Shown here: piece after piece, positions 1,684-37,131 of the stretch
Position numbering within the stretch: position 1 is the stretch's first letter
How the letters are laid out: each line of letters starts with the position of its first letter
IMG/VR virus record: IMGVR_UViG_3300024042_000045
Span: 1-39,430 of that record
Direction: 5' to 3' (one strand)
DNA length: 39,430 nucleotides
From: a virus
Lineage: Duplodnaviria; Caudoviricetes
Notes under the pieces: generated by a model
Seen by the model: only the letters and a program-made list of their open reading frames with translations
Database searches by the model: none
Told to the model about the DNA's origin: nothing
Made by a program: the position numbers and the translations under genes

Positions 1684-1759
1684 GAGCGCGTAGCTCAGCC
1701 GGTAGAGCAACTGACTTTTAATCAGTAGGTCCAGGGTTCGAATCCCTGCGCGCTCACCA
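1684..1759 (+). tRNA. tRNA-Lys (anticodon TTT); probable prophage integration site
   Basis: 76 nt; acceptor stem GAGCGCG/CGCGCTC, D arm, anticodon arm ACTGA-CTTTTAA-TCAGT, T loop GTTCGAAT, encoded CCA. Confidence 0.97.
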
Positions 1760-2215: not shown

Positions 2216-3421
2216 TCACACCGCCATATCCGAGTTGCTACCGCTCTCGTACCATTCGACCAGGTTGCCGATCGCGGTCGTTGCCATTTCCGGGTGGAGT
2301 GCCAGGTAGTGTTTCAGGATGATGTGTGCACCCTGCAGGGAGTGGCCGGAGACGGCGCAGATTTGCGGCAACGTGTTCTTGGCAAGCGCCATCCATGTGA
2401 CGCCGGTAGCGCGCAGATCCTTTTCCATGATCGTCGCGCAGCTCGGCATGGTCTTCGCCGCTGCCGCGCGGATTTCGGAGAAGAGGTTGCGATAGGTCCA
2501 ATGGTTCCACGGCGCCCAGGTGCTTTCGTTGAGATGGGCGTAGGGGCTAATGATCTCCTTGATCTTCCGCCGCTCGGCCGCTGCGTCCATCCGGGCCTTG
2601 TAGGGCGCGGCCACCGGGGGATTGACGATCGCCCCGGTCTTGTTCTGGCGCAGGACGAAGCGGCCCTTGCGGAATGCCGATAGCTGCAGGCGGAGGCGAT
2701 CGTACTGGCGCTGGCTGGTCCAGACACCGCAATAGAGCATGTCGGCGAAATCCGGCCGCCGGAACTTCTCGCCCTCTGCCGTCGCAACCAGGTGGTCGAA
2801 TTCCTCGCGGGTGATGAAGCGGGCACGCGCCGCCGGCGCCTGCATGTCGAGATCCCGGGCCGGGTTCATGGTAAGCCCCTTGATACGGCCGGTGCGCAGG
2901 CCCCAGCTGATCGCCATACCGAGGATCGTCAGCGCGCCGCGGGCCGTCGCGAGACCTTTGCTCTTCCACAGGTCTTCATAGAGGCCGTAGCAGATCGACT
3001 GGTCGAGTGCCGAGATCTCCGATGCCCACATGTCCGGATCCCACAGTTCCAGGACGCGGGCCTTCTGCTTGTAGTCCTTGATGGTCGCCGGCGGCCGCGG
3101 CGCGCCGTCCTTGCGCTTCAAAACACGCGGGCTCCTGAACCAGTCCTCGAAAAGCTGCGACATGGGATAGGTCACCGATGGCCGCGAGACCAGCGGCGCA
3201 ATCGACGCAGGGATGGCCGCTGGCGCGGTTTCCGCTTTCATAGCCTCCAGTGCTTGACGGAAGGCGTTGGACCAATCCAGCGCCTCGCCCTGGCTGAACC
3301 AGCGGCCATCGGGGTGTTTAAGGTCGGCAGGCTTGTAGCCTTTGCCGCGGAGGGCAGGCCCAGGCGAGAAGCGCGGGCGGCCGTTTCGCCAGGTGACATG
3401 GCGGATCTTGACGTCGGCCAT
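2216..3421 (-). CDS. int: Tyrosine recombinase / phage integrase
   Basis: Catalytic pattern R (SQRQYD), K (QNKTG), K-D-L-R in place of H-x-x-R, SGH, Y (KHYL); adjacent to tRNA; start overlaps the upstream stop (TAATG). Confidence 0.9.
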   Translation of the reverse strand: MADVKIRHVTWRNGRPRFSPGPALRGKGYKPADLKHPDGRWFSQGEALDWSNAFRQALEAMKAETAPAAIPASIAPLVSRPSVTYPMSQLFEDWFRSPRVLKRKDGAPRPPATIKDYKQKARVLELWDPDMWASEISALDQSICYGLYEDLWKSKGLATARGALTILGMAISWGLRTGRIKGLTMNPARDLDMQAPAARARFITREEFDHLVATAEGEKFRRPDFADMLYCGVWTSQRQYDRLRLQLSAFRKGRFVLRQNKTGAIVNPPVAAPYKARMDAAAERRKIKEIISPYAHLNESTWAPWNHWTYRNLFSEIRAAAAKTMPSCATIMEKDLRATGVTWMALAKNTLPQICAVSGHSLQGAHIILKHYLALHPEMATTAIGNLVEWYESGSNSDMAV

Positions 3422-3732
3422 TACGCACACCCTTTTGCCGGAAAGTGTTTGAGCTCGAATTTCTCGATGAAGTCGTCAAGCTCGTCCTGGATGCAGCCCA
3501 TGCGGCGCATATCGTCCTCGGTCGGCTCCTCTCCGGGATCCATGGCCGACATGATTGAAGCGAACAGGTGCTGCGCACCCGCGAAGAAGGCGTTCCGCAT
3601 TTCTTCTAGCTGCATTGCCGAAGCGTTGTCGGGGACGGCCGCCAGTCGCAGACCGATCCAACCTGCCTCAATTATCTTGCCCTTATCGATGAGCTCGCGC
3701 TCAAGGCGCTGTAGGTGGCTTCGATCAGCCAT
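3421..3732 (-). CDS. Hypothetical phage early protein (103 aa)
   Basis: GGGAGG RBS before ATG 3732; globular composition; overlaps both neighbours. Confidence 0.7.
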   Translation of the reverse strand: MADRSHLQRLERELIDKGKIIEAGWIGLRLAAVPDNASAMQLEEMRNAFFAGAQHLFASIMSAMDPGEEPTEDDMRRMGCIQDELDDFIEKFELKHFPAKGCA

Positions 3733-4273
3733 GGCCGCCTCCCTTTGCTTCTGTGGAGGTGGGACCGGGAAGCGGCGAATGCTTCGGCTTCGCGGCCTGC
3801 TTGGCGCGGATCGCCTCGACCTTCGTCCAGACGCGGGCAAGCTCGGTTTCTCCGGCCTCGTGCATGTCGAGTGCGTTGGCCAGGCAGAGCGCGGCGAGCG
3901 TGACCATGACGCCGCCGGCTTCCTGATGAGGTTCGCCGACCGGCCGGCCGTAGACATAATCTACAAGCTGGTGGGCCTCGCTGGCGGTGCAGCCGCACGC
4001 CTGGACAAGCTCCAGCGCCTCCTCAAGGAAGCGATGGTTTCGCTCTTCACGGTCCCCGGCGATCATGGGGCCGAAGCATTCCATCATCCACGGCTGCACG
4101 CGATCCTGAAATGAGCGCATCTCCGGGCCGGTGAAGAACACCCGGTTCTCGATCTCGATTTCAAAGGTCGGATCGTCGGTCTGGCCTACGCCTTCTTCCC
4201 ACCTCGACCAGTCGGACCAGCCGGCCAGATCACTGATTTTGTGCCGCGTGCGGTGCATCTGGACCCTAAGCAT
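3725..4273 (-). CDS. Putative MazG-like / all-alpha NTP pyrophosphatase-fold protein
   Basis: GGAGG RBS; acidic helix RFLEEALELVQA and a second motif PHQEAGGV resembling the NTP-PPase E-E-x-x-E...E signature. Confidence 0.5.
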   Translation of the reverse strand: MLRVQMHRTRHKISDLAGWSDWSRWEEGVGQTDDPTFEIEIENRVFFTGPEMRSFQDRVQPWMMECFGPMIAGDREERNHRFLEEALELVQACGCTASEAHQLVDYVYGRPVGEPHQEAGGVMVTLAALCLANALDMHEAGETELARVWTKVEAIRAKQAAKPKHSPLPGPTSTEAKGGGHG

Positions 4274-4484
4274 GATCGCCTCCGAAAGCTTCTGTGGGGG
4301 CGCGGCCGATGGCCTGCATACCGGCCTCAGTGGTTTTGCCATCCCGACCGATCCAACCGTTTTGGCGGCAAACTGCATAAGCGCTCGTCCAACCGCCGTG
4401 CTGCGACCGGCCTTGTGGGTGATGGTCCGCGAGGCCGGCAGCGGTTTCGAGGATTTTGCGCTGCGTGATCGTCGGCTTCTTCAT
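4266..4484 (-). CDS. Small hypothetical protein (winged-helix-like), translationally coupled to the RT
   Basis: ATGA overlap with the RT stop; AAGGAG RBS; TITQRKILE...TTEAGMQA pattern. Confidence 0.6.
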   Translation of the reverse strand: MKKPTITQRKILETAAGLADHHPQGRSQHGGWTSAYAVCRQNGWIGRDGKTTEAGMQAIGRAPTEAFGGDHA

Positions 4485-5512
4485 TCCGGCGCTCCTTTCT
4501 GAGTGTTGGTGACGTCGCTGCGCCCGATGCGAGCGTGCGGCACGTCGAGATGTTTGAGAAGATTGCGGCTGTCGGCCCAGCGGGCGTGGCCCGTCCAGGC
4601 GGCAAGAAAACGCTCCAACCTGGCGTGCTCGCCGGCGGCGCGATAGGCCTTGATCTTGCGGCGGGCGCGGATCACGCTGTCACGGCGGAGGAGCTTGTGC
4701 GTCGGCCAGATGCGATAGCCGACGAAGTTCACGCCGCGGCTGACCGACTGGATGCTCCACTTCGAGAACCTGAGGCCGAGCTGTTCGCGCGAGAGCGCTT
4801 CGATCGAGGCGCGGACCTTGCGCAGGTGATCCGGATCGCGGCCGAGGACGACGATATCGTCCATGTAGCGATACCAGTAGCGCTCGCCGAGATCCTGCTG
4901 CAGGTGGCGGTCGACGACACCGGCATAGATGTTCGCGAAGATCTGCGAGGTGAGATTGCCGATGGGCAGGCCGATGCCGGATCGAGGCAGCATCGCCTCG
5001 ATGAGGCGCAGCGTGGCGCGGCACGATATCTTCGCGTCGATCAGCCGCCAGAGGGTGCCGCGCTCGATCGAGTAGAAGTAACGCGAGAAGTCCGTCTTGA
5101 GGGCATAGAGCGGCCCATCGCGATCGAGGCGGCGCATGTCGGCCTGCAGGGTGATTGCAGCGGCGTGGGTGCCCTTGCCGGGACGGCAGGCGAAGCAGCG
5201 CGGCAGGAGCGTGGCGTCGAAGATCGGTGCGATGACGATGGCAACGGCCTGCTGCGCGATGCGATCCTCGAAGGGCAACGCCGAGATCAGTCGCTCCTTC
5301 GGATCGTAGATGCGAAATTGCAGCGATTCTCCCTGTCGGTAGGAGCCGTCAGCCATGGCGGCCGCCAGGTGATGCAGGTTGAGAACCGAGTATTCCTTGT
5401 ACTCGAGATATCCCGGCGTCAGGCGTTTGCCGCGGGCCGTCAGACGCAGGGCCTCGCGCATGTTTGCATCGGCCGTGATCCGGCCGATGAGATTGCGGAA
5501 TTTCTTTGCCAT
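4481..5512 (-). CDS. brt: DGR reverse transcriptase (bRT-like, 343 aa)
   Basis: RT motifs IYDPKERLI, FEDRIAQQA, KTDFSRYF, GLPIGNLTSQIFAN (DGR-type SQ motif), YMDD, NFVGY; GAGGA RBS; adjacent TR and avd. Confidence 0.95.
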   Translation of the reverse strand: MAKKFRNLIGRITADANMREALRLTARGKRLTPGYLEYKEYSVLNLHHLAAAMADGSYRQGESLQFRIYDPKERLISALPFEDRIAQQAVAIVIAPIFDATLLPRCFACRPGKGTHAAAITLQADMRRLDRDGPLYALKTDFSRYFYSIERGTLWRLIDAKISCRATLRLIEAMLPRSGIGLPIGNLTSQIFANIYAGVVDRHLQQDLGERYWYRYMDDIVVLGRDPDHLRKVRASIEALSREQLGLRFSKWSIQSVSRGVNFVGYRIWPTHKLLRRDSVIRARRKIKAYRAAGEHARLERFLAAWTGHARWADSRNLLKHLDVPHARIGRSDVTNTQKGAPE

Positions 5513-5695
5513 GGAGTTCCTCGCGGCGAGACGCCGGCCGCGGGTTTCGACGGCGCGCGCGCCGCTACTCCCCGCTCTGCCGGACCTCGCAGTGTGTTCG
5601 CCGAAGCTGGAAGGTTGGGCCGACCACCCTGGCGCATGAGCGCCGGTGGAATATGGCCGGCGCGGCCGTGACCGTCGCCGAGCCGGAAAGGGGTC
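5513..5695 (-). ncRNA. DGR spacer (Sp) between TR and RT, part of the DGR template RNA
   Basis: Position between TR and brt; contains GGTGGTCGGCC...CCAGCTTCGGCGAACAC, resembling the BPP-1 Sp as I recall it (needs alignment). Confidence 0.65.
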
Positions 5696-5813
5696 GTCGC
5701 AGGCGCCGCGGGCCGAGATGTTCTCGTTCGAGTTGTCAGCGGGGTAATCCAGGTTCGCGTAGCGGGAACCGGCGTTCTCGCCGTTGATCCAGCTGCCGCC
5801 AAAGATGGACGGA
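5696..5813 (-). repeat. DGR template repeat (TR)
   Basis: 118-bp near-copy of 6263-6380; all 11 differences are at TR adenines (minus strand); AAC-rich codons. Confidence 0.97.
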
Positions 5814-5823
5814 CCAAGCAACG

Positions 5824-6195
5824 TCATTGCCCCGACCTCCCGTTGCCCTTCACCTTGTGGATCCACGCTCCGAGCATCGCGCCGGTCTCTGCAAGGTAGC
5901 GTAGCGCCACCTGGTGCTGATGGTGCGAGAGGAGCTTCTTGCCGCAGGCGAAGCGCAACCAGAAACGCAGCGTCGCCAGATGAGCATCCGCTGCATAGAG
6001 CCGCGACGCCTGCTTCGACATCGCCGCCTGGTAGAGCAGGCCGACCGTGTCCATCAGCATCCCGATCATGCTGTCGCGCAGCGCGCCGTGGCGCCGCGGG
6101 AAAGACTGGAGGATGGGATAGAGATAGCTCACGGTGGCCTCGTATTTCTCGACGATCACCAGATCCCTGGAGTTCACATGTTCATTGCGTTGCAT
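5824..6195 (-). CDS. avd: DGR accessory variability determinant (Avd, four-helix bundle)
   Basis: 123 aa; IVEKYE...YLYP...FPRRH...LRFWLRF...ETGAMLGAWI, typical of bAvd; lies between target and TR. Confidence 0.92.
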   Translation of the reverse strand: MQRNEHVNSRDLVIVEKYEATVSYLYPILQSFPRRHGALRDSMIGMLMDTVGLLYQAAMSKQASRLYAADAHLATLRFWLRFACGKKLLSHHQHQVALRYLAETGAMLGAWIHKVKGNGRSGQ

Positions 6196-6225
6196 GGCTG
6201 GCGATCGTCCGGATCAGGAGGGATG

Positions 6226-6245
6226 GCCCGCGCTTTCGCGCGGGC
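6226..6245 (-). promoter_or_regulatory. DGR target-recognition hairpin/cruciform downstream of IMH
   Basis: GCCCGCGC-GAAA-GCGCGGGC, perfect 8-bp stem with GAAA loop, 2 nt after the target stop codon. Confidence 0.9.
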
Positions 6246-6247
6246 GC

Positions 6248-7138
6248 TCAGGCGCCCAGGTGGTCGCAGGCGCCGCGGGCCGAGATGTACCCGTCCGAGT
6301 CGCCAGCGGGGTAATCCAGGCTCGCGCAGCGGGAACCGGCGTCCCCGCCGTAGATCCAGCCGCCGCCAAAGATGGACGGAGCCGGGTCTTCGGGATCGCC
6401 GTCGGTGCCCCAGATCCAGAGATTGCCGGTCGCCTGCATGAGGCCGCAGGCGCTGGTGCGGGCGGCATCGAGGCCGGTGGTCCGGGGGTGGCTGTCGGCC
6501 GACGAGCGTTCCTTGACACCGTAGGCGGCGCTCCGGAATTCGTCATAGGTCGGCAGGCGCTTGCCGTGTTCGGCCATGACGGCGACGGCATCATGGTAGT
6601 TGAGGCGGGCGAGCGAACGTCCGTCGGCGATCGTGACCCCGCAGCGGCTCGTACCGTGGCGCTTGCGGTCGACGCAGAGGAGGAAGACGTCGATCCAGAC
6701 ACGCTTGCCGTCCGCCACCTCGATGCAGGTCATGCCGCGCGGATCGGGGCAAGCCGGGCGATAGCCGAGATCCCACAGCGAGGCGGGGTTGATCGCCGGC
6801 GTATCGTCGCCGCCCTCGCGGCCGGTGGCGTTGCCGCCCAGGGCGTAGTGGAAGCCGCCGAGCCAGCCGGCATCGATCGGGTTCTCCGGGCCGAGGAGGC
6901 TGGCAAAGGGCTTGCCGTCGGCGTCGAGCCGGACGCCGTAGTCCTCGCCGGGAATGAGATCCGGCAGGGTGACGACGGTTTCGGCCGCGAAGCTGAAATC
7001 GGCGCCGTCGACGGTGATGGTGGTGCCGGCGCGCAGGACGAGGACGGCTCCTTCATCCGTATTGTTGACGGTCAGGATCGACGCGTCCTCGTCGGGGCGT
7101 GCGATGGTGGCGGCATGCGTCTTCACTGCGATGTTCAT
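6248..7138 (-). CDS. DGR target protein, Mtd-like (beta-sandwich plus C-type lectin fold), apparently lacking the N-terminal beta-prism
   Basis: GGGAG RBS before ATG 7138; Mtd-like motifs GGFHYA, SLWDL.YRP..PDPRGMT, VTIADG, HGKRLPTYDEF, QATGNLWIWG, C-terminus SARGACDHL; VR at the 3' end. Confidence 0.9.
   Translation of the reverse strand: MNIAVKTHAATIARPDEDASILTVNNTDEGAVLVLRAGTTITVDGADFSFAAETVVTLPDLIPGEDYGVRLDADGKPFASLLGPENPIDAGWLGGFHYALGGNATGREGGDDTPAINPASLWDLGYRPACPDPRGMTCIEVADGKRVWIDVFLLCVDRKRHGTSRCGVTIADGRSLARLNYHDAVAVMAEHGKRLPTYDEFRSAAYGVKERSSADSHPRTTGLDAARTSACGLMQATGNLWIWGTDGDPEDPAPSIFGGGWIYGGDAGSRCASLDYPAGDSDGYISARGACDHLGA
6263..6380 (-). repeat. DGR variable repeat (VR) with GC-rich tract and IMH at its 3' end
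   Basis: Matches TR except 9 A>G and 2 A>T, all non-synonymous; diverges from TR after ...GCGCCTGCGAC (IMH CACCTG.. versus IMH* GACCCC..). Confidence 0.97.
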
Positions 7139-7286
7139 GGGATACTCCCGTTGCTGAGGTTGAAAATGAAGGCCGGCGGCACGCAGCACAAAACCGCCGG
7201 CCTTCGAGGTCCGCCGACCTGGAGGCGGAGGTGGGCGGGCGACCCGAGACCTGGGGACATCCCTCGGGTCGGTCTTGCCGGATCCG

Positions 7287-7529
7287 CTACTGGAGCAGCG
7301 TCCGGCGAAGGCTGGTTAGGACGGGCTCGCCGCGTTCCCGCTCGGTGACGATGCAGGCTGCCTCGACGATGACGGCCGACGATGTCGCCCGCGCAAGCGA
7401 GGCAGCGCGCATGAGGCTGTCGAGCTCGGTGTGATAGTCGCCGAGATCCGCGAGGAGGCGCGTCATGAGCTCGTCACTCTTCATGCTGAGCTGCTCGAGC
7501 TCGGCAAGGATTTCGCGAGTGGTCTTCAT
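7287..7529 (-). CDS. Hypothetical coiled-coil early protein (80 aa)
   Basis: AAGGAG RBS; ATGA overlap with the upstream gene. Confidence 0.65.
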   Translation of the reverse strand: MKTTREILAELEQLSMKSDELMTRLLADLGDYHTELDSLMRAASLARATSSAVIVEAACIVTERERGEPVLTSLRRTLLQ

Positions 7530-7792
7530 TGCTGTCGCTCCTTCAGGCGCTTTTCGGCGAGCTGGCCGGCGAGCGTGAGGGAGAGCGACCGGCTCGCCTC
7601 GCGCGCCAGATGGCGGCGCACGAGCGCGTCGACGAGGGTGAGCGAGAAACGGTGCGGGCCGATCTCCCAAGTGGTGCCGGCCTTGCGGATGTGGCGGAAA
7701 TGGCCGATCGCCAGAACGGCCTCCTGCTGCCGGCGGGTGAGCACCTTGTGCGGTGCCAGCGCAGCGGGGTTTTCGGAGACAGAGCTTCTCAT
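7526..7792 (-). CDS. Hypothetical protein, possibly winged-helix DNA-binding
   Basis: ATGA overlaps at both ends; LTRRQQEAVLAI...LTLAG pattern. Confidence 0.65.
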   Translation of the reverse strand: MRSSVSENPAALAPHKVLTRRQQEAVLAIGHFRHIRKAGTTWEIGPHRFSLTLVDALVRRHLAREASRSLSLTLAGQLAEKRLKERQQ

Positions 7793-8115
7793 CGCCGCCC
7801 CGCCTTTCGCGTCATCTCCATATGATGGATCAACTGCTCCTCGACGATCGCTATGATGCCATCCTTGAGGATCTGATCACCGCTCGGCTTGCTCACCTGG
7901 GCGGCAACACTTCCGATCGTCTGGATGAAGACGATCGACATGGCCTGAACCACGATCATCGGATCGCCGTCGGGACGAACCACCTCGGCGTTGACCCAGG
8001 CGGACAGCTGCTCGACCCATCCGCTGATGGCGCAACGTGCCATCGTGCGCGTCAGATTGTGTTCGCTCGTGAGCGCGTCCTCGAGCGGTATGCCGGAATG
8101 GATGACCTTCGTCAT
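7789..8115 (-). CDS. Hypothetical early protein (108 aa)
   Basis: GGAGG RBS; ATGA overlaps. Confidence 0.7.
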   Translation of the reverse strand: MTKVIHSGIPLEDALTSEHNLTRTMARCAISGWVEQLSAWVNAEVVRPDGDPMIVVQAMSIVFIQTIGSVAAQVSKPSGDQILKDGIIAIVEEQLIHHMEMTRKAGRR

Positions 8116-8411
8116 GTGCGCCCTCCTGCGTAGCGCTGACGCATGCGGGCATTCTGGTTGGCGATCGCGAGCTGCAGAGGGGCAATCTCGCGCGGCCTGG
8201 TCGCCGGTACAGGCTCTTCCCTGGCGGCGCCGTCGGCGCCCTGTTCAAGCCAGCGCTCGAGCGCGCCCCGCGGCCAGGACCAGCCGACGGTGAGCTTGCG
8301 GGGCATGCCGCGCTCCATGTGCAGGCGCAGCCAGTTGCGCTTGATCCAGTCTTCCGAGCGGTCAAGCGCGGCGGCCAGCTCGGGCAGTTTGACAAGTTTT
8401 TCCGACAGCAT
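8112..8411 (-). CDS. Excisionase/AlpA-like HTH protein, first gene of the leftward operon
   Basis: LVKLPELAAALDRSEDWIKR...MPRK...WSWPRGALERWL resembles Xis/AlpA winged HTH; GGAG RBS. Confidence 0.65.
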   Translation of the reverse strand: MLSEKLVKLPELAAALDRSEDWIKRNWLRLHMERGMPRKLTVGWSWPRGALERWLEQGADGAAREEPVPATRPREIAPLQLAIANQNARMRQRYAGGRT

Positions 8412-8578: not shown

Positions 8579-9199
8579 TTAAGCGGCGCGGCTCTCGCGG
8601 AAGGATGCAACCACCACTCCACGGATCACAACTCGGTCATTATCAATGAGGAGCGGCTTGATCAGATTGACCCTCATCGTGAGGGCAACGAGGAAAGGAT
8701 CCTCGAATATGCGGAAGACGGTCTCCGCATTGCCGAAGCGATCATAAACTTGGGCGCAGACAACGTCACCGGGCTCGGGTTTGGCATTCAGGTCGACTAG
8801 CAAGACGTCGCCTGGCATGTATCCGGCCCCGTCCAATGCTTTCGACCGCATTACCCACGGCTCTAGGCCGTTTCGAACGCCCTGCATGGCTTTAACTGCA
8901 CCGTCTACAACCGCTAGCGGCTCAGCTTCATAGCGCGAGCTTTCGACATCGGCGAGGCCTCGGGGCTTTACCGGGATTTCCGTGGAGAACGCCTTCAGCC
9001 CTGAAACTTGCTCGATCAACCGGACGGTCGCCGGACCAAGTTGCGCTTTGTTTTCAGGGTCGTTCAGGAACTTGGAGAAGGTCGAAGGGTGCTTGCCCGT
9101 ACGACGTGACAGCTCAGCTGCGTCCCAGCCTTTTACCTCCAGGACGAAGTGATACCAATCCAGATGCTGTCGGCGCACGTTTTCCACAACGCGAAACAT
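8579..9199 (-). CDS. cI: CI-like repressor (XRE HTH plus S24-like domain)
   Basis: HTH WDAAELSRRTGKHPSTFSKFL; C-terminal GYMPGDVLLVD...PGDVVCA...IRGVVV; divergent from a cro-like gene; start codon uncertain. Confidence 0.85.
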   Translation of the reverse strand: MFRVVENVRRQHLDWYHFVLEVKGWDAAELSRRTGKHPSTFSKFLNDPENKAQLGPATVRLIEQVSGLKAFSTEIPVKPRGLADVESSRYEAEPLAVVDGAVKAMQGVRNGLEPWVMRSKALDGAGYMPGDVLLVDLNAKPEPGDVVCAQVYDRFGNAETVFRIFEDPFLVALTMRVNLIKPLLIDNDRVVIRGVVVASFRESRAA

Positions 9200-9292
9200 A
9201 TGGTGGAGCCGCCCACTAGAAAATCGGAAGCGGCTCACTTGACGAATTGCCGCAAATCACTTCTTTCATGAATTATCCAACGAGGAAAGAGC

Positions 9293-9499
9293 GTGATGCG
9301 TCTCACATGGAAGACTGTGGACAACTGGCGCGAGAGCCGCGGCATCGAAGTCGCTGAACTCGCGCGCCGAGCCGGCATTCCCGAGCGGACAATCTATGCG
9401 GGGGTGCGGAACGATAGCCGTTTGCAGGCAGCCACGAAGACTGTCATCCGCTCGATTTTTCCGGACGAGTTTCAGCAAGCGGAGGGTGGCGAGCAATGA
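9293..9499 (+). CDS. cro: Cro-like HTH regulator
   Basis: VAELARRAGIPERTIY HTH; divergent from cI; GAGG RBS. Confidence 0.8.
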   Translation: MMRLTWKTVDNWRESRGIEVAELARRAGIPERTIYAGVRNDSRLQAATKTVIRSIFPDEFQQAEGGEQ

Positions 9500-27591: not shown

Positions 27592-28182
27592 ATGGAGCTC
27601 GCGCTCGGGGCTATCGGCAAACTATTCGGTGCAGGCCTGACTGCGGCATCGGGTGCGGCAACGGGTGCCGCGGGTGCAGCCGCTGGCGCTGCCGGCGCGG
27701 CGGCGACTGGCGCCACCGCAGCAACCACGCTTGGATCGGGCGCATTGGGTGCCCTGCAGGGCTTTACGACAATTCTGAAGGTTCTCGGCGGCCTGGGCGC
27801 GGCCGCCGCTTCCGCCCGTGCAGACAATCAGCTGGCCGACCAAACAGACCTGCAGGCGGGGCAGGAACAATTGCTTGGCGAGCAGCGAAAGACGAAGATG
27901 AGCCGGGAGCTCGCGCGGGTCCTCGGCAACAACCAGGTGGCCTTTGCGGCGGCTGGGATCGACCTGACGCAGGGGATCGCTGCCGATAATGCGGCCAGTG
28001 CAAAACAGCGCGCCGCCAGCGAGATCTCGATTGACCAGCAGGACACGGAATTCAGGCGCGCCCTCTACCGCATGCGCGCCGGCGGATATCGCGACCGCGC
28101 CCGAGCGACGAAGGGCGGTGCGGTGCTTTCTGCGCTTGGTGACGTCGCCGGACTTGGCATCAGCCTGGCGGAGCGCGGCTAA
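27592..28182 (+). CDS. Internal virion (ejection) protein, Ala/Gly-rich
   Basis: Ala/Gly-rich amphipathic N-terminus; FAAAGIDL motif; gene order. Confidence 0.65.
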   Translation: MELALGAIGKLFGAGLTAASGAATGAAGAAAGAAGAAATGATAATTLGSGALGALQGFTTILKVLGGLGAAAASARADNQLADQTDLQAGQEQLLGEQRKTKMSRELARVLGNNQVAFAAAGIDLTQGIAADNAASAKQRAASEISIDQQDTEFRRALYRMRAGGYRDRARATKGGAVLSALGDVAGLGISLAERG

Positions 28183-31010
28183 TGGCGAACCGCTCTTCGC
28201 GTGATCCCGGGCAGCTCGCCCGCTTCGACATGTCCGCGGGTATTTCGCCGGACGTGCCGTCCTACGCTATTTATACCGGCCAAGCTGCCGAAGCCCTGGC
28301 CGCGGTCGCCGGCAGCCTTTCCACGCGCCTCGGCCAGATGGCCGATCGCGCCGCAAAACGCGAAGGTCAACTCGCCGGTTTGACGGCCGGCCAGGAGGCC
28401 GGCGCGGCCTATCTGCAGCAGCAAGCCGCAATCGGAGAAGCCGCCGGCGTTGCTGGAACCGGCCCCTGGTATGAGCAGGCAAAGGCCCTCCTTCGTAAGG
28501 AGGAGGGATTTCGTGATACCCCCTATTGGGACAAGACCGCCCACCGCGTCGGCTATGGATCGGACACGACGGTTACGGCCGATGGAAAAGTCGTGCGCGT
28601 CACGCAGAACATGCGGATCTCGCGCGAAGATGCCGAACGTGACCTCGACTATCGTCTCACCCAGCGGGAGGGCAAGAAGGCGCAAACCCAGATCGGCGCG
28701 ATGTGGGAGCGCTTGCCGGCGGGCGCAAAGGCCGGCCTTGCGTCTGTTGCCTACAATTACGGCTCGCTTCCCGCGAGCGTGGTGGCCGCGGCCAAGGGCG
28801 GCGACGTGGGCGCCATCGCCGACGCCGTGGGAGCGTTGCCGGCAAACGCCAAGCGCCGAGCAAGGGAGGCAGCCCTTATAAGAGGGGCTGCGTCGCAACC
28901 TCCATCAGAGGGGGACACCCAGGTCGTTAAGCGTCCTGTAGATGACAGCACAACGGCGCCTGTCCTATCGAAGGAGCCACTTGCCCTGCGCCATGACGGC
29001 ACCATTCGCGGTGACGCCTTCGACGACGCCGCGCTATCTGCCTGGGGTTGGCGGATGCAGGAAGGCGTAAGCTCCGACCTATTTGCAGCGCAGCTCGAGC
29101 ACGAGGACGACCCGGCGGGCTTTGCCGCCGCCGCCGGCAAGATCCGCGCGAAATATGCCGCCGAGCTGCCGGACATCAAGATGCGCGAGATGTTCGAGGA
29201 GACCTTCGCCAAGAACACGCGGGCGTACGCGATGAATATCGCCTCGCGCCAGGAGGCGCGCCTTCGCCAAGAGCAAGAAGCCTCCTTTGCCGCCGGGCTT
29301 TCCGCAAAGTCGGTCGACATCGAGCGTCAGGCGCAGGTTCTCGGCGCCAATCCGCAGGGCGATGCGATTATTGGCGACCAGGTCGCAACCCTGCAGCGCT
29401 CGATCGACGGCGCCGTCGAACAGGGCATTATCTCGCCGGCACAGGCCGAGACGGAAAAACAGCGCATTGCCAAGACAGCCGCCTTCGGCCGCGTCCAGGG
29501 CGTGTTCGAGGCACTGCCGACCGCGGAAGCTAAGGAGCAGTTCGCGCTTGAGCTTCTCGAGGACTGGCGCGCGGGCAAGGGGCCGATGGCGAAGCTGCCC
29601 TTCGCCGAGGTCAAGGCGCGATCCGACATCCTCTTCAACGAGGCGCGCGCCCAGATCAATCGGCGGATCGCCGCCAACAAGGGGGAGGCAGCTCGCCTCG
29701 ATGCGCTGATCAAGGACGACGTCGCCAGCATTGCCGCCGGCGGCAAGGGGCTCGATCCAGCCGAGAGTGGCCTCAGCGTAGACCGGTTGCGTGATGTCGC
29801 CGGCGACGAAGCCGTCACGGCCTGGCAGCGCGAACAGGACAAGGCCCGCAAACTCTACTCGGCAACGAACGGCATGGAAGTGCAGAGCGCGGCCGACATA
29901 GCGGACCGTCTGAAGGTGATGCGGCCGGAACCCGGCAAGCCTGGATACACAGACGATCTGGCTGTTTTCGAGGCCGCGCAGAAGCGTGCCCAGGATGTCT
30001 TGAAGGAGCGCGAGACCGATCCTCTTGGCCAGGCGGCCCGAGGCGGCGCGCTGGAGCTCTCCACGATCGACCCGACGTCGGCCGAGGCACTTGCCGGCAG
30101 TCTGCAAACTCGTCGCGCGCAGCGCGACCAGGTCGCCGGCCTCTACCAGCAGGACGTGCCCTATTTCCGGCCAGGCGAAAAGGAGATGCTGTCCTCGGCG
30201 CTGATGCGCCAACCAGAAATGCTGCCGGCTTTCGCGCAGACCGTCGCCAAGGTGTTCGGACGGCAGGCGCCCCGCGTGCTCTCCGAGCTTTCGGACGATG
30301 CGCCTGTCATCGCTCATGCAAGCGGCCTTGCGCTCGCAACGGGCGATACTTCGGTGGCGAACGACGTCGCCAACGCACTCGCCATGAAGCGCGAAAAGGT
30401 CTTTACGGCGAAGATGCCATCCCTCGGCGACATGAGCAATTTCGCCGCCGGTCAGATCGGCGGCGCTCTGGCGGCGGACGGGCGGACGCAAAGCGCCATG
30501 GTGCAGACCGCGGCTATCCTCTTCGAGCAGGCAGCGAACCTGCAGGGCTTCGATCCCAGCGACCTGAAGACGGAAGGATCGATCGCGCAGCTCGCCTTCG
30601 CGAAAGCACTCGACCGCGCCGCCGGCGGCCGTTCCGTTGGTGGCGTTGCCTATGGCGGCCTCGGTGAAGTCAATGGTGGCCGCATCGTCGTCCCCGCCGA
30701 CATGCCAAAGGATCGCCCTCAAGCACTCCTCCAGGATCTGACGGACGAGCAGCTCGCCATGCTTCCACCGATCCGAAGCGCGAACGACTTCCCCATTCCG
30801 GTCGATCGGATCCGCAATGCACAGCTCATCTCCGCTGGCGACGGCCTCTACCGCGTCGCGCTCGGCGACGCGATGGGCGACGAGCCTCAATTCCTCGCCA
30901 ATCCTGACGGGGGTTTCTGGCTGCTGGATATCCGCGCCCTCGAGCGCGTGGCCGCCAACACACCGGGCGTCAAGGATTTTAACCTGTTCGGCTGGCAGCC
31001 TGCGAGGTAG
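28182..31010 (+). CDS. Internal virion/ejection protein with a T4-lysozyme-like (GH24) domain
   Basis: LLRKEEGFRDTPYWD..HRVGYG...SVAYNYG...KRRAREAAL within a 942-aa helical protein. Confidence 0.75.
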   Translation: MANRSSRDPGQLARFDMSAGISPDVPSYAIYTGQAAEALAAVAGSLSTRLGQMADRAAKREGQLAGLTAGQEAGAAYLQQQAAIGEAAGVAGTGPWYEQAKALLRKEEGFRDTPYWDKTAHRVGYGSDTTVTADGKVVRVTQNMRISREDAERDLDYRLTQREGKKAQTQIGAMWERLPAGAKAGLASVAYNYGSLPASVVAAAKGGDVGAIADAVGALPANAKRRAREAALIRGAASQPPSEGDTQVVKRPVDDSTTAPVLSKEPLALRHDGTIRGDAFDDAALSAWGWRMQEGVSSDLFAAQLEHEDDPAGFAAAAGKIRAKYAAELPDIKMREMFEETFAKNTRAYAMNIASRQEARLRQEQEASFAAGLSAKSVDIERQAQVLGANPQGDAIIGDQVATLQRSIDGAVEQGIISPAQAETEKQRIAKTAAFGRVQGVFEALPTAEAKEQFALELLEDWRAGKGPMAKLPFAEVKARSDILFNEARAQINRRIAANKGEAARLDALIKDDVASIAAGGKGLDPAESGLSVDRLRDVAGDEAVTAWQREQDKARKLYSATNGMEVQSAADIADRLKVMRPEPGKPGYTDDLAVFEAAQKRAQDVLKERETDPLGQAARGGALELSTIDPTSAEALAGSLQTRRAQRDQVAGLYQQDVPYFRPGEKEMLSSALMRQPEMLPAFAQTVAKVFGRQAPRVLSELSDDAPVIAHASGLALATGDTSVANDVANALAMKREKVFTAKMPSLGDMSNFAAGQIGGALAADGRTQSAMVQTAAILFEQAANLQGFDPSDLKTEGSIAQLAFAKALDRAAGGRSVGGVAYGGLGEVNGGRIVVPADMPKDRPQALLQDLTDEQLAMLPPIRSANDFPIPVDRIRNAQLISAGDGLYRVALGDAMGDEPQFLANPDGGFWLLDIRALERVAANTPGVKDFNLFGWQPAR

Positions 31011-35420: not shown

Positions 35421-36149
35421 ATGAGTGTCGTCCTGCCGATCGAGGAAGACCCGCGCTACCGCATTTATACGGCCAGTGCCGGACAGACACAGTTCGCCAT
35501 TCCGTTTCCGTTCCAGCAGGCCGCCGACATCGCCGTCGCCCTACAGACGGCTCCGGGCGTATGGGAGGAGCTGTCGGCTCTGCTCTTCGACATTTCAGGC
35601 GCCGGAGGCGCGGAAGGCGGAATGCTCCAATTCCATGTCGGACGGGCAGTCGGCGAGAATATCCTCGTGCTGGGGAAAGCTGTCCTCGACCGCCTCGGCT
35701 CCATCACGCGCGCTGGCCGCTTCTCAAGCGAGCTTACTGACAGCGAATTCGATCGGGTCCGCATCATCCAGCAGGAAACGGCACGCGATGTCGCGCGGGC
35801 GATCAAGATGGACTATGGCGGCGCGCCCTTGACCGTCGCGCCGGATCTTGAAGACGGTCAGGTGCTCGTCAGATCCGGCGACTATCTCGCCGGCGGACCG
35901 AACGCGACGGCGATCATGGCTGTCGGCGAGGCCGCCGCCGCATCGGCCGACGCCGCGGCCGCGTCAGCTCAGGCCGCGGCAAATTCCGCCACAGCAGCGG
36001 CCACCTCTCGCGCCGCGGCGCAAAACCTCGTCGACGCGGCGCAGGCCGCCTACGTCGGCTTCCAACCCGGGACGTTCTACGACCTTGGGAGGGTGACCGA
36101 CGCGATCCAGCTTTTCCCCGGCGATCTTGGCCGGGTCACCGATCTTTGA
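35421..36149 (+). CDS. Tail fibre/adapter (T7 gp17 N-terminal-like head, Ala-rich stalk, duplicated DLGRVTD tail)
   Basis: YTASAGQTQFAIPFPF N-terminus; SEFDRVRIIQQE; AAASADAAAASA coiled coil. Confidence 0.75.
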   Translation: MSVVLPIEEDPRYRIYTASAGQTQFAIPFPFQQAADIAVALQTAPGVWEELSALLFDISGAGGAEGGMLQFHVGRAVGENILVLGKAVLDRLGSITRAGRFSSELTDSEFDRVRIIQQETARDVARAIKMDYGGAPLTVAPDLEDGQVLVRSGDYLAGGPNATAIMAVGEAAAASADAAAASAQAAANSATAAATSRAAAQNLVDAAQAAYVGFQPGTFYDLGRVTDAIQLFPGDLGRVTDL

Positions 36150-36159
36150 AGGGGCGGAG

Positions 36160-37131
36160 ATGGCGACACCAATTCAACAGCTCAAGGGCACAGCAGCCGA
36201 ACTCGATGCGGTGACGCTGCCCAATGGGGTTATCGTCTGGGACGAGACCAACAAGATCTTCCGCGGCCACGACGGAGTGACACCCGGCGGGCACAAGCTC
36301 GTCGGCAGTGTCGCGCTCGACGCGTTGGTGGCGGCCGTGGCCGGCAAGGCATCGCTTGCCGGTGACAATATGTTTTCCGGCGCCAACACCTTCACCAAGA
36401 CCCAGAAGTGGTCCAAGGGCGCCGACGTTGTCAGCGCTGCGGCTCTGACGCTCGGCGATGACGGCAACTACTTCGACGTGACGGGAACCACGGCCATCAC
36501 CTCGATTGCGACCGTCGGCGTCGGCACGGTGATCAAGTCGCACTTCGACGGGGCGCTGACGCTGACGCACCACTCGACGGACCTTGTTCTTCCCTATGGC
36601 GTAGACATTTCGACCTACGCCGGCATGGAACTGGAGTTCGTCGAGTACGACACCGGGAAATGGCGCTGCGTCAGCTTCGTATCTCCTCCATTGCTCCATG
36701 TCCGCGATCAAAAAACATCTGGGACGGAAGGTGGGACCTCGATCAGTGGCACGCAGGTACGTACGCTGAACACCGTCGTGTCCAACGGAATTTCTGGGGC
36801 CTCACTTTCCAGCAATCAGATCACCTTACCCGCAGGCACTTACGACATCTTTGCAAGCGTCCCCGCCATGAGCGCCCCGAGACACAAGGCTTGGCTACGC
36901 ACCTCTGGCGGCTCTCTCATCGTTGCAGGTTCATCGGAAGGCACAGCCGGCTCGACCTCTGTTGTGACGAGAAGCCTTATCAAAGGCCGCTTTACGCTCG
37001 CCGTAGCGACCGTACTTGAGATTGCACACTACACGTCAGCAGCTCTTGCATCTACCGGCCTTGGATATGCCGGCGGAGCTGCGGGCATTCCGGAAGTCTA
37101 CACCGATATCACGATCAGGAAGGTGGCCTGA
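36160..37131 (+). CDS. Receptor-binding protein with an Mtd-type N-terminal beta-prism and an unrelated C-terminal domain
   Basis: MATPIQQLKGTAAE...IVWDETNK..RGHDGVTPGGHKL resembles the BPP-1 Mtd N-terminus; GGAG RBS; follows the tail fibre. Confidence 0.7.
   Translation: MATPIQQLKGTAAELDAVTLPNGVIVWDETNKIFRGHDGVTPGGHKLVGSVALDALVAAVAGKASLAGDNMFSGANTFTKTQKWSKGADVVSAAALTLGDDGNYFDVTGTTAITSIATVGVGTVIKSHFDGALTLTHHSTDLVLPYGVDISTYAGMELEFVEYDTGKWRCVSFVSPPLLHVRDQKTSGTEGGTSISGTQVRTLNTVVSNGISGASLSSNQITLPAGTYDIFASVPAMSAPRHKAWLRTSGGSLIVAGSSEGTAGSTSVVTRSLIKGRFTLAVATVLEIAHYTSAALASTGLGYAGGAAGIPEVYTDITIRKVA

Follow-up and report, generated by a model that had tools for sequence, protein, structure and literature searches.

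Diversity-generating retroelements (DGRs) of phages are treated as host-range switches. Within these elements, a reverse transcriptase (RT) acting with Avd copies a template repeat (TR) with errors at adenines, and the resulting cDNA replaces the variable repeat (VR) of a target gene. The question of what such an element diversifies outside of a tail module is raised by IMG/VR virus record IMGVR_UViG_3300024042_000045 (positions 1 to 39,430; the whole stretch of 39,430 nucleotides is referred to as the window). It represents a temperate podophage carrying a DGR cassette on the minus strand between its repressor and integrase genes. The reading proposed here, to which a probability of about 0.52 is assigned, is that an intact DGR of the type known from Bordetella phage BPP-1 resides in the early operon, and that it is predicted to alter the binding surface of its target. 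This protein, with the fold of the BPP-1 protein Mtd but devoid of the N-terminal β-prism, is likely cytoplasmic and probably acts by binding and weakening a host protein that varies, a defence component being the likeliest candidate.

A complete DGR of the BPP-1 type

An earlier note on this DNA, made from the sequence alone, had described a complete cassette on the minus strand comprising the target gene, a hairpin, avd, TR, the spacer (Sp) RNA and the RT gene, in this order. This was confirmed by the repeats, by Avd and Rfam matches above the respective cut-offs and by an RT with the YMDD motif (Table 1). TR and VR form a repeat of 122 nt with 90% identity and 12 mismatches, 11 of which are located at TR adenines (hypergeometric p 1.9e-8), the twelfth representing the end at which the initiation of mutagenic homing elements (IMH in VR, IMH* in TR) diverge. 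No further VR-like copy was present in the window. A DGR-class RT with intact catalytic motif, an adenine-specific TR/VR pair and Avd were thus all observed, together with IMH/IMH* divergence, the GC hairpin after the VR and the Sp RNA, and the cassette is confirmed as a complete BPP-1-type DGR.

The cassette resembles that of BPP-1 in gene order, Avd, Sp RNA, the GC hairpin with its GAAA loop, RT (52% identity) and target (36% identity, same fold); moreover, BPP-1 likewise is a temperate podovirus with similar virion genes. The two differ in location, since mtd of BPP-1 is encoded on the late strand after the gene for the tail fibre, whereas the window cassette lies between repressor and integrase. 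In a relative (95%), 6 of 14 substitutions fall within the approximately 16 variable codons. VR variants within the population were not detected in four sequencing runs, which were available as contigs, an assembly form that drops rare variants. In four other runs, identity of the cassette stops at 7129, the fourth codon of the target, which is therefore regarded as the border of the module.

Fold of the target and parts lost from it

The target aligned to residues 68-378 of Mtd (E 1e-40, 36% identity), and the alignment register given in the earlier note, in which the protein starts after the β-prism of Mtd, held when compared with the BPP-1 record itself. A model predicted with AlphaFold (AF2) from 114 sequences (predicted local distance difference test, pLDDT, 88.6) matched the Mtd structures 1YU0-1YU4 in Foldseek with template modelling (TM) scores of 0.84-0.85. 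The structure comparison of 6248-7138 with Mtd that the note had proposed returned the Mtd fold (TM 0.85), the prism being absent. According to this model, the β-sandwich and the CLec (C-type lectin) fold with C-terminal VR that characterize the Mtd class are present. Within Pfam, mtd_2nd but not Mtd_N was found in the target, while BPP-1 Mtd yields both. An N-terminal β-prism (Mtd_N) or fibre extension is lacking, Pfam giving no match to Mtd_N even when the protein was read from an upstream GTG. The possibility of a prism hidden by an upstream start was rejected: the sole upstream start, GTG 7189, adds 17 non-prism residues without a match to Mtd_N. The predicted lack of a signal peptide was also upheld, a hydrophobic stretch being absent (maximum Kyte-Doolittle value, KD19, 1.2).

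The further claim that two long CLec inserts are missing was right as to two real deletions, but the actual losses are about 15 aa of one insert, placed with boundaries that we take to be those of the original Mtd structure paper, and 18 aa of the β2-β3 loop. This loop comprises 13 aa in the target compared with 31 in BPP-1-like rows; by alignment, its length is 12-13 aa in all 95 early rows and 30-42 aa in all 29 tail-type rows (both groups are defined below). A third Mtd insert was discarded as a clade marker, since its 26-aa form occurs in both groups (69 of 95 early rows, 20 of 29 tail-type rows). Complete early-type frames of at most 320 codons from stop to stop numbered 47 of 114.

As stated in the accessible part of Miller 2008 (PMC2408619), the β2-β3 loop of Mtd braces the site of the neighbouring protomer and supplies Tyr322 and Tyr333, which are invariant. 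Prism and sandwich are reported to promote an obligatory trimer (PMC6328139, in part), and the prism presumably represents the attachment to the fibre (PMC10743442, in part). Because the prism and the bracing loop, both tied to the Mtd trimer, have been lost, the target is probably a monomer. The target is Mtd-like in fold, yet it lacks three tested features of a tail-tip Mtd, namely the prism, the β2-β3 loop and the location in a tail module on the late strand.

Early-type loci form a clade

With a threshold of E 1e-10, 484 proteins were recorded as homologs of the target. The top 120 include 116 with a length of 280-330 aa, and those bearing organism names originate from Rhizobiales. In total, 21 genome and 67 viral loci were retrieved. 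Twelve of them, showing a long β2-β3 loop or an N-terminal extension, were set aside as a tail-type comparison group, and the remaining 76 were dereplicated to 58 early-type loci. Neighbouring genes were called with our own gene-calling model and grouped into 664 clusters, 297 representatives of which were scanned with PHROGs, many without a match.

Annotated switch, replication, recombination or methylase genes were located within -6/+8 kb in 53 of the 58 early-type loci; the other five are short or unannotated. The survey of related prophages suggested in the earlier note thus recovered the same early placement. Recognised virion genes within 5 kb were found in none of the 58 (PHROGs scan of 297 of the 664 neighbour clusters), and the late operon starts 5.5-7.9 kb downstream in three of them. 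Neighbours were scanned for 8 of the 12 tail-type loci, and among them are genes for fibre, baseplate, portal, capsid or internal virion proteins. An integrase gene follows downstream on the same strand in 28 of the 58 early-type loci, a divergent CII-like gene is located upstream in 31, and 35 encode two or three targets. A minority reside in a replication operon on the late strand, two beside Mu-like genes; because these minority carriers share the strand with late genes, the common trait is the early module rather than an antisense position.

Unrooted trees computed by a quick method separated early from tail-type members on one long branch, both for the target core (95 early and 29 tail-type rows; Shimodaira-Hasegawa-like approximate likelihood ratio test, SH-aLRT, 99) and for the RT (56 early and 6 tail-type; SH-aLRT 100, with a long-branch warning). 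On this phylogenetic evidence, the target and the RT are both members of a separate clade from Alphaproteobacteria. The earlier note had assumed a DGR relocated in this phage; together with the 58 loci, this clade instead indicates an old, mobile module at clade level. Throughout 114 early VRs (not dereplicated), 1337 mismatches were counted at TR adenines and 75 elsewhere, a ratio somewhat inflated because segment scoring tolerates adenine mismatches.

The family is rare: besides the central genome, 2 of 400 sampled genomes carried a member, one being tail-type and the other early-type, located among cro, cI, methyltransferase and replication genes. Plasmids gave no match, and the 14 records obtained from annotated phages in GenBank, each under 37%, include no member of the short clade.

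Several loci deviate in arrangement. Three tandem targets occur at L006:8983-11768, and non-adjacent targets 2-6 kb upstream that still match the TR were observed in L017 (4105), L054 and L058 (5764, 10001). Target copies without a nearby RT are encoded in L064, L067 and L069. In L149, an ASCH-like gene (7817-8206) was apparently inserted between TR and RT of an early-type cassette.

The prism-like domain is located on another gene

The position held by mtd in BPP-1, after the fibre gene, is occupied in the window phage by a non-DGR protein (36160-37131), which is likely its own receptor-binding protein and whose N-terminus resembles the Mtd_N prism. Its predicted models matched Mtd_N clusters with TM scores of 0.80-0.83. 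Of 60 homolog matches to this prism region, 49 were scanned (the 11 left out being mostly repeat matches), and, for the first 55 residues, 19 of these 49 match Mtd_N. A profile built from the prism homologs and searched over the fetched loci found just this protein and BPP-1 Mtd. Pairwise BLAST against Mtd was weak (E 0.005) and Pfam Mtd_N gave no direct match in the protein, so that the prism assignment is founded on models, homolog matches and profile. Across 27 records, Pfam Mtd_N gave no matches, the controls being equally silent. In comparison with BPP-1, the window phage accordingly carries a target without the prism and without the loop bearing Tyr322/Tyr333, and a prism-like N-terminus on the protein in the mtd position.

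The protein at 36160-37131 joins its Mtd_N-like prism to an unrelated receptor-binding body. The preceding fibre adaptor, which shows marginal similarity to Bbp9 of BPP-1 (E 0.045), carries a repeated DLGRVTD motif at its end, a potential docking site for the prism. Elsewhere in the virion module, 28182-31010 encodes an internal virion protein whose residues 36-255 match a PHROG endolysin; this lysozyme-like domain is comparable to that in Bbp11 of BPP-1.

Carriers and sister phages

Among 23 carrier records with late regions, seven encode a tail sheath (two families) and nine a tape measure without sheath, the rest being incomplete or unclear. Carriers span podo-, sipho- and myoviruses, and because virion types vary to this extent, it is unlikely that one anchor-less protein docks on all of them. 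G023 encodes both forms: an early two-target cassette and, after the baseplate genes, a fibre-fused Mtd of the tail type, which reaches 59% to BPP-1 and no more than 48% to early forms and is truncated where the contig stops. In 33 carrier records, no second VR was seen in a tail gene, the exception being this gene of G023 (L128:902-2218), which might also be rewritten by the early TR and whose contig stops short of the VR.

Sister phages integrated at the same transfer RNA (tRNA) site fill the cassette slot differently. L131, with a 96% identical integrase, harbours DUF5131 and small open reading frames (ORFs), its record ending inside the fibre gene. In L132 and L133, the slot holds a two-target DGR, and the fibre body is a different, long one. 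The family is absent from three relatives at a greater distance (completeness 94-100%).

Composition, fusions and selection

The fraction of charged residues was 0.209 (0.177-0.249) in early and 0.132 (0.108-0.167) in tail-type proteins, without overlap, and Ser/Thr/Asn accounted for 0.150 and 0.241, respectively. The window target (0.223) resembles the early proteins of its phage, whereas the fibre gene product (0.146) is similar to Mtd; since capsid and portal proteins are also charged, charge sets the target apart from fibres, not from all virion proteins. Furthermore, five target homologs (P0056, P0059, P0062, P0066 and L064:4450-6267) possess N-terminal fusions to nucleotide-handling or ParB-like domains, P0059 and P0062 sharing the same one. 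The match to dATP/dGTP pyrophosphohydrolase is strong (E 1e-22), while those to MazG, ParB-like and deoxyribosyltransferase-like domains are weak. Outside of the VR, the ratio of nonsynonymous to synonymous substitution rates (dN/dS; nine pairs) was 0.22-0.38 in five and 0.08-0.12 in four pairs.

Genomic surroundings of the cassette

Table 1. Features of the cassette, the surrounding early operon and the tail module.
Position	Strand	Feature	Evidence
1684..1759	+	tRNA-Lys(TTT), likely integration site (attL)	about twofold depth of piece 1712-1761 in 3 runs
2216..3421	-	Tyrosine integrase	phrog_1, E 2e-14
3421..3732	-	Small gene abutting integrase, kept in sister phages	comparison with sisters
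3725..4273	-	Early gene, matching PHROGs 8593/14118 of unknown function	MazG-like by eye only; no Pfam MazG match
4266..4484	-	72-aa ORF overlapping RT stop (ATGA), putative gene	sequence; no family match
4481..5512	-	DGR RT, 343 aa, YMDD	phrog_1423, E 1e-106; 52% identity to BPP-1 Brt
5533..5656	-	Sp structured RNA	Rfam RF03022 Phage_DGR, 58.3 bits (cut-off 50)
5692..5813	-	TR, 24 adenines, ~16 variable codons ahead of IMH*	repeat comparison
5824..6195	-	avd, 123 aa	Pfam bAvd, 95.8 bits; NCBIfam DivGenRetAVD, 113.7 bits (cut-off 80)
6226..6245	-	8-bp GC stem with GAAA loop, just 3' of target stop	sequence; z -3.27
6248..7138	-	DGR target, 296 aa; β-sandwich and formylglycine-generating enzyme (FGE)-type CLec of Mtd fold	alignment, Pfam, predicted model
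6259..6380	-	VR, ending in G/C element and IMH	repeat comparison
7168..7205	-	Hairpin of 13 bp, then AUUUUC; just upstream of target	aligned region also in DGR-less sister
7287..8411	-	Four overlapping small early genes upstream of cassette	first xis-like by eye only
8579..9238	-	CI-type repressor	phrog_4; LexA-like
9296-9499	+	cro-like ORF, divergent from CI-type repressor	position
35421..36149	+	Short tail-fibre adaptor	PHROG tail fibre matches
36160..37131	+	Likely receptor-binding protein, N-terminal Mtd_N-like β-prism, not a DGR target	models, homolog profiles

Genes overlapping or abutting each other continue from the RT down to the integrase, and the plus strand encodes replication genes and a BPP-1-like podovirus virion module. 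Three positional claims of the earlier note stood in part. The ATGA overlap of the RT stop is present in the sequence, but the supposed next early gene is a 72-aa ORF without family match that was missed by the gene caller. Likewise, the cassette does lie between repressor and integrase, but the xis label of the assumed xis-to-int leftward operon has no family match; a homolog of the putative xis ORF gave a weak helix-turn-helix match. The distance of about 28 kb to antisense tail genes applies from the target to the fibre genes along the prophage, whereas tail tube genes are only about 18 kb away. In the circular genome, across att, the fibre genes would be about 5 kb from the cassette and convergent to it.

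A promoter scan returned 3 sites versus 1.5 +/- 1.1 expected, with no usable promoter. The RNA run X5 showed flat depth across the host gene and all prophage genes and contigs of up to 139 kb; it therefore likely represents DNA and gives no evidence on expression. The hairpin at 7168-7205 was considered as a conserved cassette element and rejected, as it was not evident in 15 relatives; on sequence comparison it is an operon element, not a cassette element. Being a strong minus-strand hairpin ahead of the accessory slot, it is possibly a terminator read through by antitermination.

GC content at third codon positions (GC3) was 0.65-0.75 for cI (8579-9238) and the fibre genes (35421-37131), compared with 0.82-0.87 for the DGR genes; the lower values suggest that it is cI and the fibre genes which look foreign, rather than the DGR. 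The host gene beside the tRNA-Lys site (1-1536), encoding a signal-peptide-like N-terminus, a caspase domain (Peptidase_C14) and DUF4384, also borders the sister prophages.

Proposed function and alternatives

Judging from these comparisons, the target is quite probably not located in the virion. The non-virion, cytoplasmic role suggested in the earlier note gains support from the context of 58 loci, three virion types, the prism on another gene, the loss of the loop, the shift in composition, the enzyme fusions and the presence of both forms in G023. In other cases the slot is occupied by early genes of accessory type (DUF5131, Lar-like, MazG-like, methylases, clamp), which suggests host takeover or counter-defence; one of the two has about an even chance of being the task of the target, counter-defence being the likeliest. 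The target would be transcribed with the early genes after infection or induction, and TR RNA would be copied by RT-Avd with adenine errors and homed into the VR during phage DNA replication. Each progeny genome would then express its own target variant on entering the next cell. Because of this, variants binding the target of that strain would be selected directly, phenotype being tied to genotype. The protein, probably as a monomer, would bind a variable host protein in the cytoplasm, and tandem paralogs read from one TR may enlarge the repertoire.

Several points weigh against this proposal. Early and tail-type members are two clades, and hence the composition and loop counts are not independent events. 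Loci were found by word patterns derived from the window target, so that short forms located in tail modules could be missed. The slot neighbours are general early accessory genes whose anti-defence role is putative, and the fusions may represent lost stops between neighbours, as the same enzymes are separate upstream genes in L001 and L005. Proteins made early can in principle decorate particles. The support is comparative, ligand, expression and localisation all being predicted. Moreover, a monomer would forfeit the avidity described as essential for Mtd in the accessible part of Miller 2008. The tail-type protein of L080 (332 aa), which adjoins a fibre-assembly gene, is only about 15-20 residues longer at the N-terminus, and for this reason a short N-terminus alone does not exclude a virion role.

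Such a role would be that of an accessory adhesin made early, which binds cell surfaces and docks on capsid or tail by its β-sandwich or short N-terminus. The Mtd fold (TM 0.85), the short N-terminus of L080 in tail context and the classification of such proteins as tail proteins by databases and Wu 2018 (as far as its available part goes) fit this explanation. It is nonetheless quite unlikely, as a docking site would be needed on podo-, sipho- and two myovirus types, the prism resides on 36160-37131, G023 retains a separate tail-type Mtd, and loop loss, composition shift and enzyme fusions point elsewhere. A soluble decoy or surface factor freed at lysis, blocking for example receptors on neighbouring cells or debris, would make an export signal unnecessary and would preserve the ancestral binding of outer-membrane proteins; early placement poorly fits a lysis-time product, the benefit would not be linked to the genome carrying the variant, and the bracing loop is lost, rendering this explanation very unlikely.

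Lysogen expression is possible because cI is located upstream on the same strand. The target could therefore act as a guard in the lysogen, recognising proteins of superinfecting or competing phages inside the cell, which it would either block or answer by activating a partner enzyme. Against phages that change, a hypervariable surface would be suitable, and some members are fused to or adjoin nucleotide-depleting enzymes, resembling sensor-effector pairs. On the other hand, most members are without an effector domain, as reflected by their lengths given above, the neighbours vary, and the operon ends in the integrase or sits among replication genes. Integrase and replication operons are normally repressed in lysogens (lambdoid logic), and the guard function is considered unlikely. 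Finally, the cassette might spread as a neutral hitchhiker by recombination in the mosaic early region, its target being useless; it is dispensable in sister phages and rare in the genome sample. The dN/dS values of 0.08-0.38, intact frames, 484 homologs and long-lived paralog pairs, both retained under one TR, speak against this explanation, which is already disfavoured and highly improbable.

Relation to known systems and implications

Viral DGR targets are mostly tail proteins according to the accessible part of Roux 2021. For Quimbyvirus, the available text of Benler 2021 (PMC8008677) describes a second DGR target that is remote and non-structural, with a proposed role in phage-host conflict. 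This is the closest precedent. As in the window, the target is a CLec protein of a phage, encoded far away from the structural genes and in antisense to them, with methyltransferases nearby. Unlike the window, the cassette, from gut phages of Bacteroidetes, diversifies a tail-linked gene as well, the remote target being its second; the window cassette lies entirely in the early module together with all its targets, and its target is of Mtd-family descent. For Bradyrhizobium sp. YR681, row 222 of the Wu 2018 supplement (PMC5758913) lists a DGR of the order TG-AVD-TR-RT with an 894-nt Mtd homolog and a strong stem-loop, without a phage structural homolog within its 20 kb. Judging from length and host, this DGR is probably a member of the early clade; the accessible part of that source files it under the Mtd tail class and mentions neither truncation nor early placement. 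TaqVP, TvpA and AvpA (PMC6328139, in part) share the FGE-type CLec with C-terminal VR and are prism-less monomers, TaqVP originating from a prophage, but are single-domain proteins with less than about 21% identity to Mtd, whereas the window family keeps the Mtd β-sandwich. A description of an early-operon, prism-less Mtd clade was found neither in the full texts covered, mostly non-subscription ones with the Roux 2021 supplements outside their scope, nor in the accessible parts of PMC3521204 and PMC11661182.

Databases call this target family a tail protein. Throughout the clade, the Mtd scaffold appears to have lost the parts specific to virions and to have been transferred to early operons. 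Tentatively, at slightly less than even odds, a single conversion turned an adhesin of the tail tip, along with its mutator, into a portable module of evolvable inhibitors that acts inside the cell and yields libraries of binders against host defence proteins. With similar reservation, temperate phages in rhizobia and their alphaproteobacterial relatives, whatever the tail type, may swap this module into their early operons. The clade offers a clean and culturable test of intracellular targeted hypermutation by phages, as named Shinella and Rhizobium isolates carry it. The compact, probably monomeric CLec scaffold, seemingly adapted to the cytoplasm and equipped with its own mutator, may also be of use for in vivo binder evolution. 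If the proposal is true, a DGR-diversified counter-defence system would represent the phage-side counterpart of hypervariable bacterial sensors, and identifying its ligand would likely reveal a fast-changing host defence or regulatory protein.

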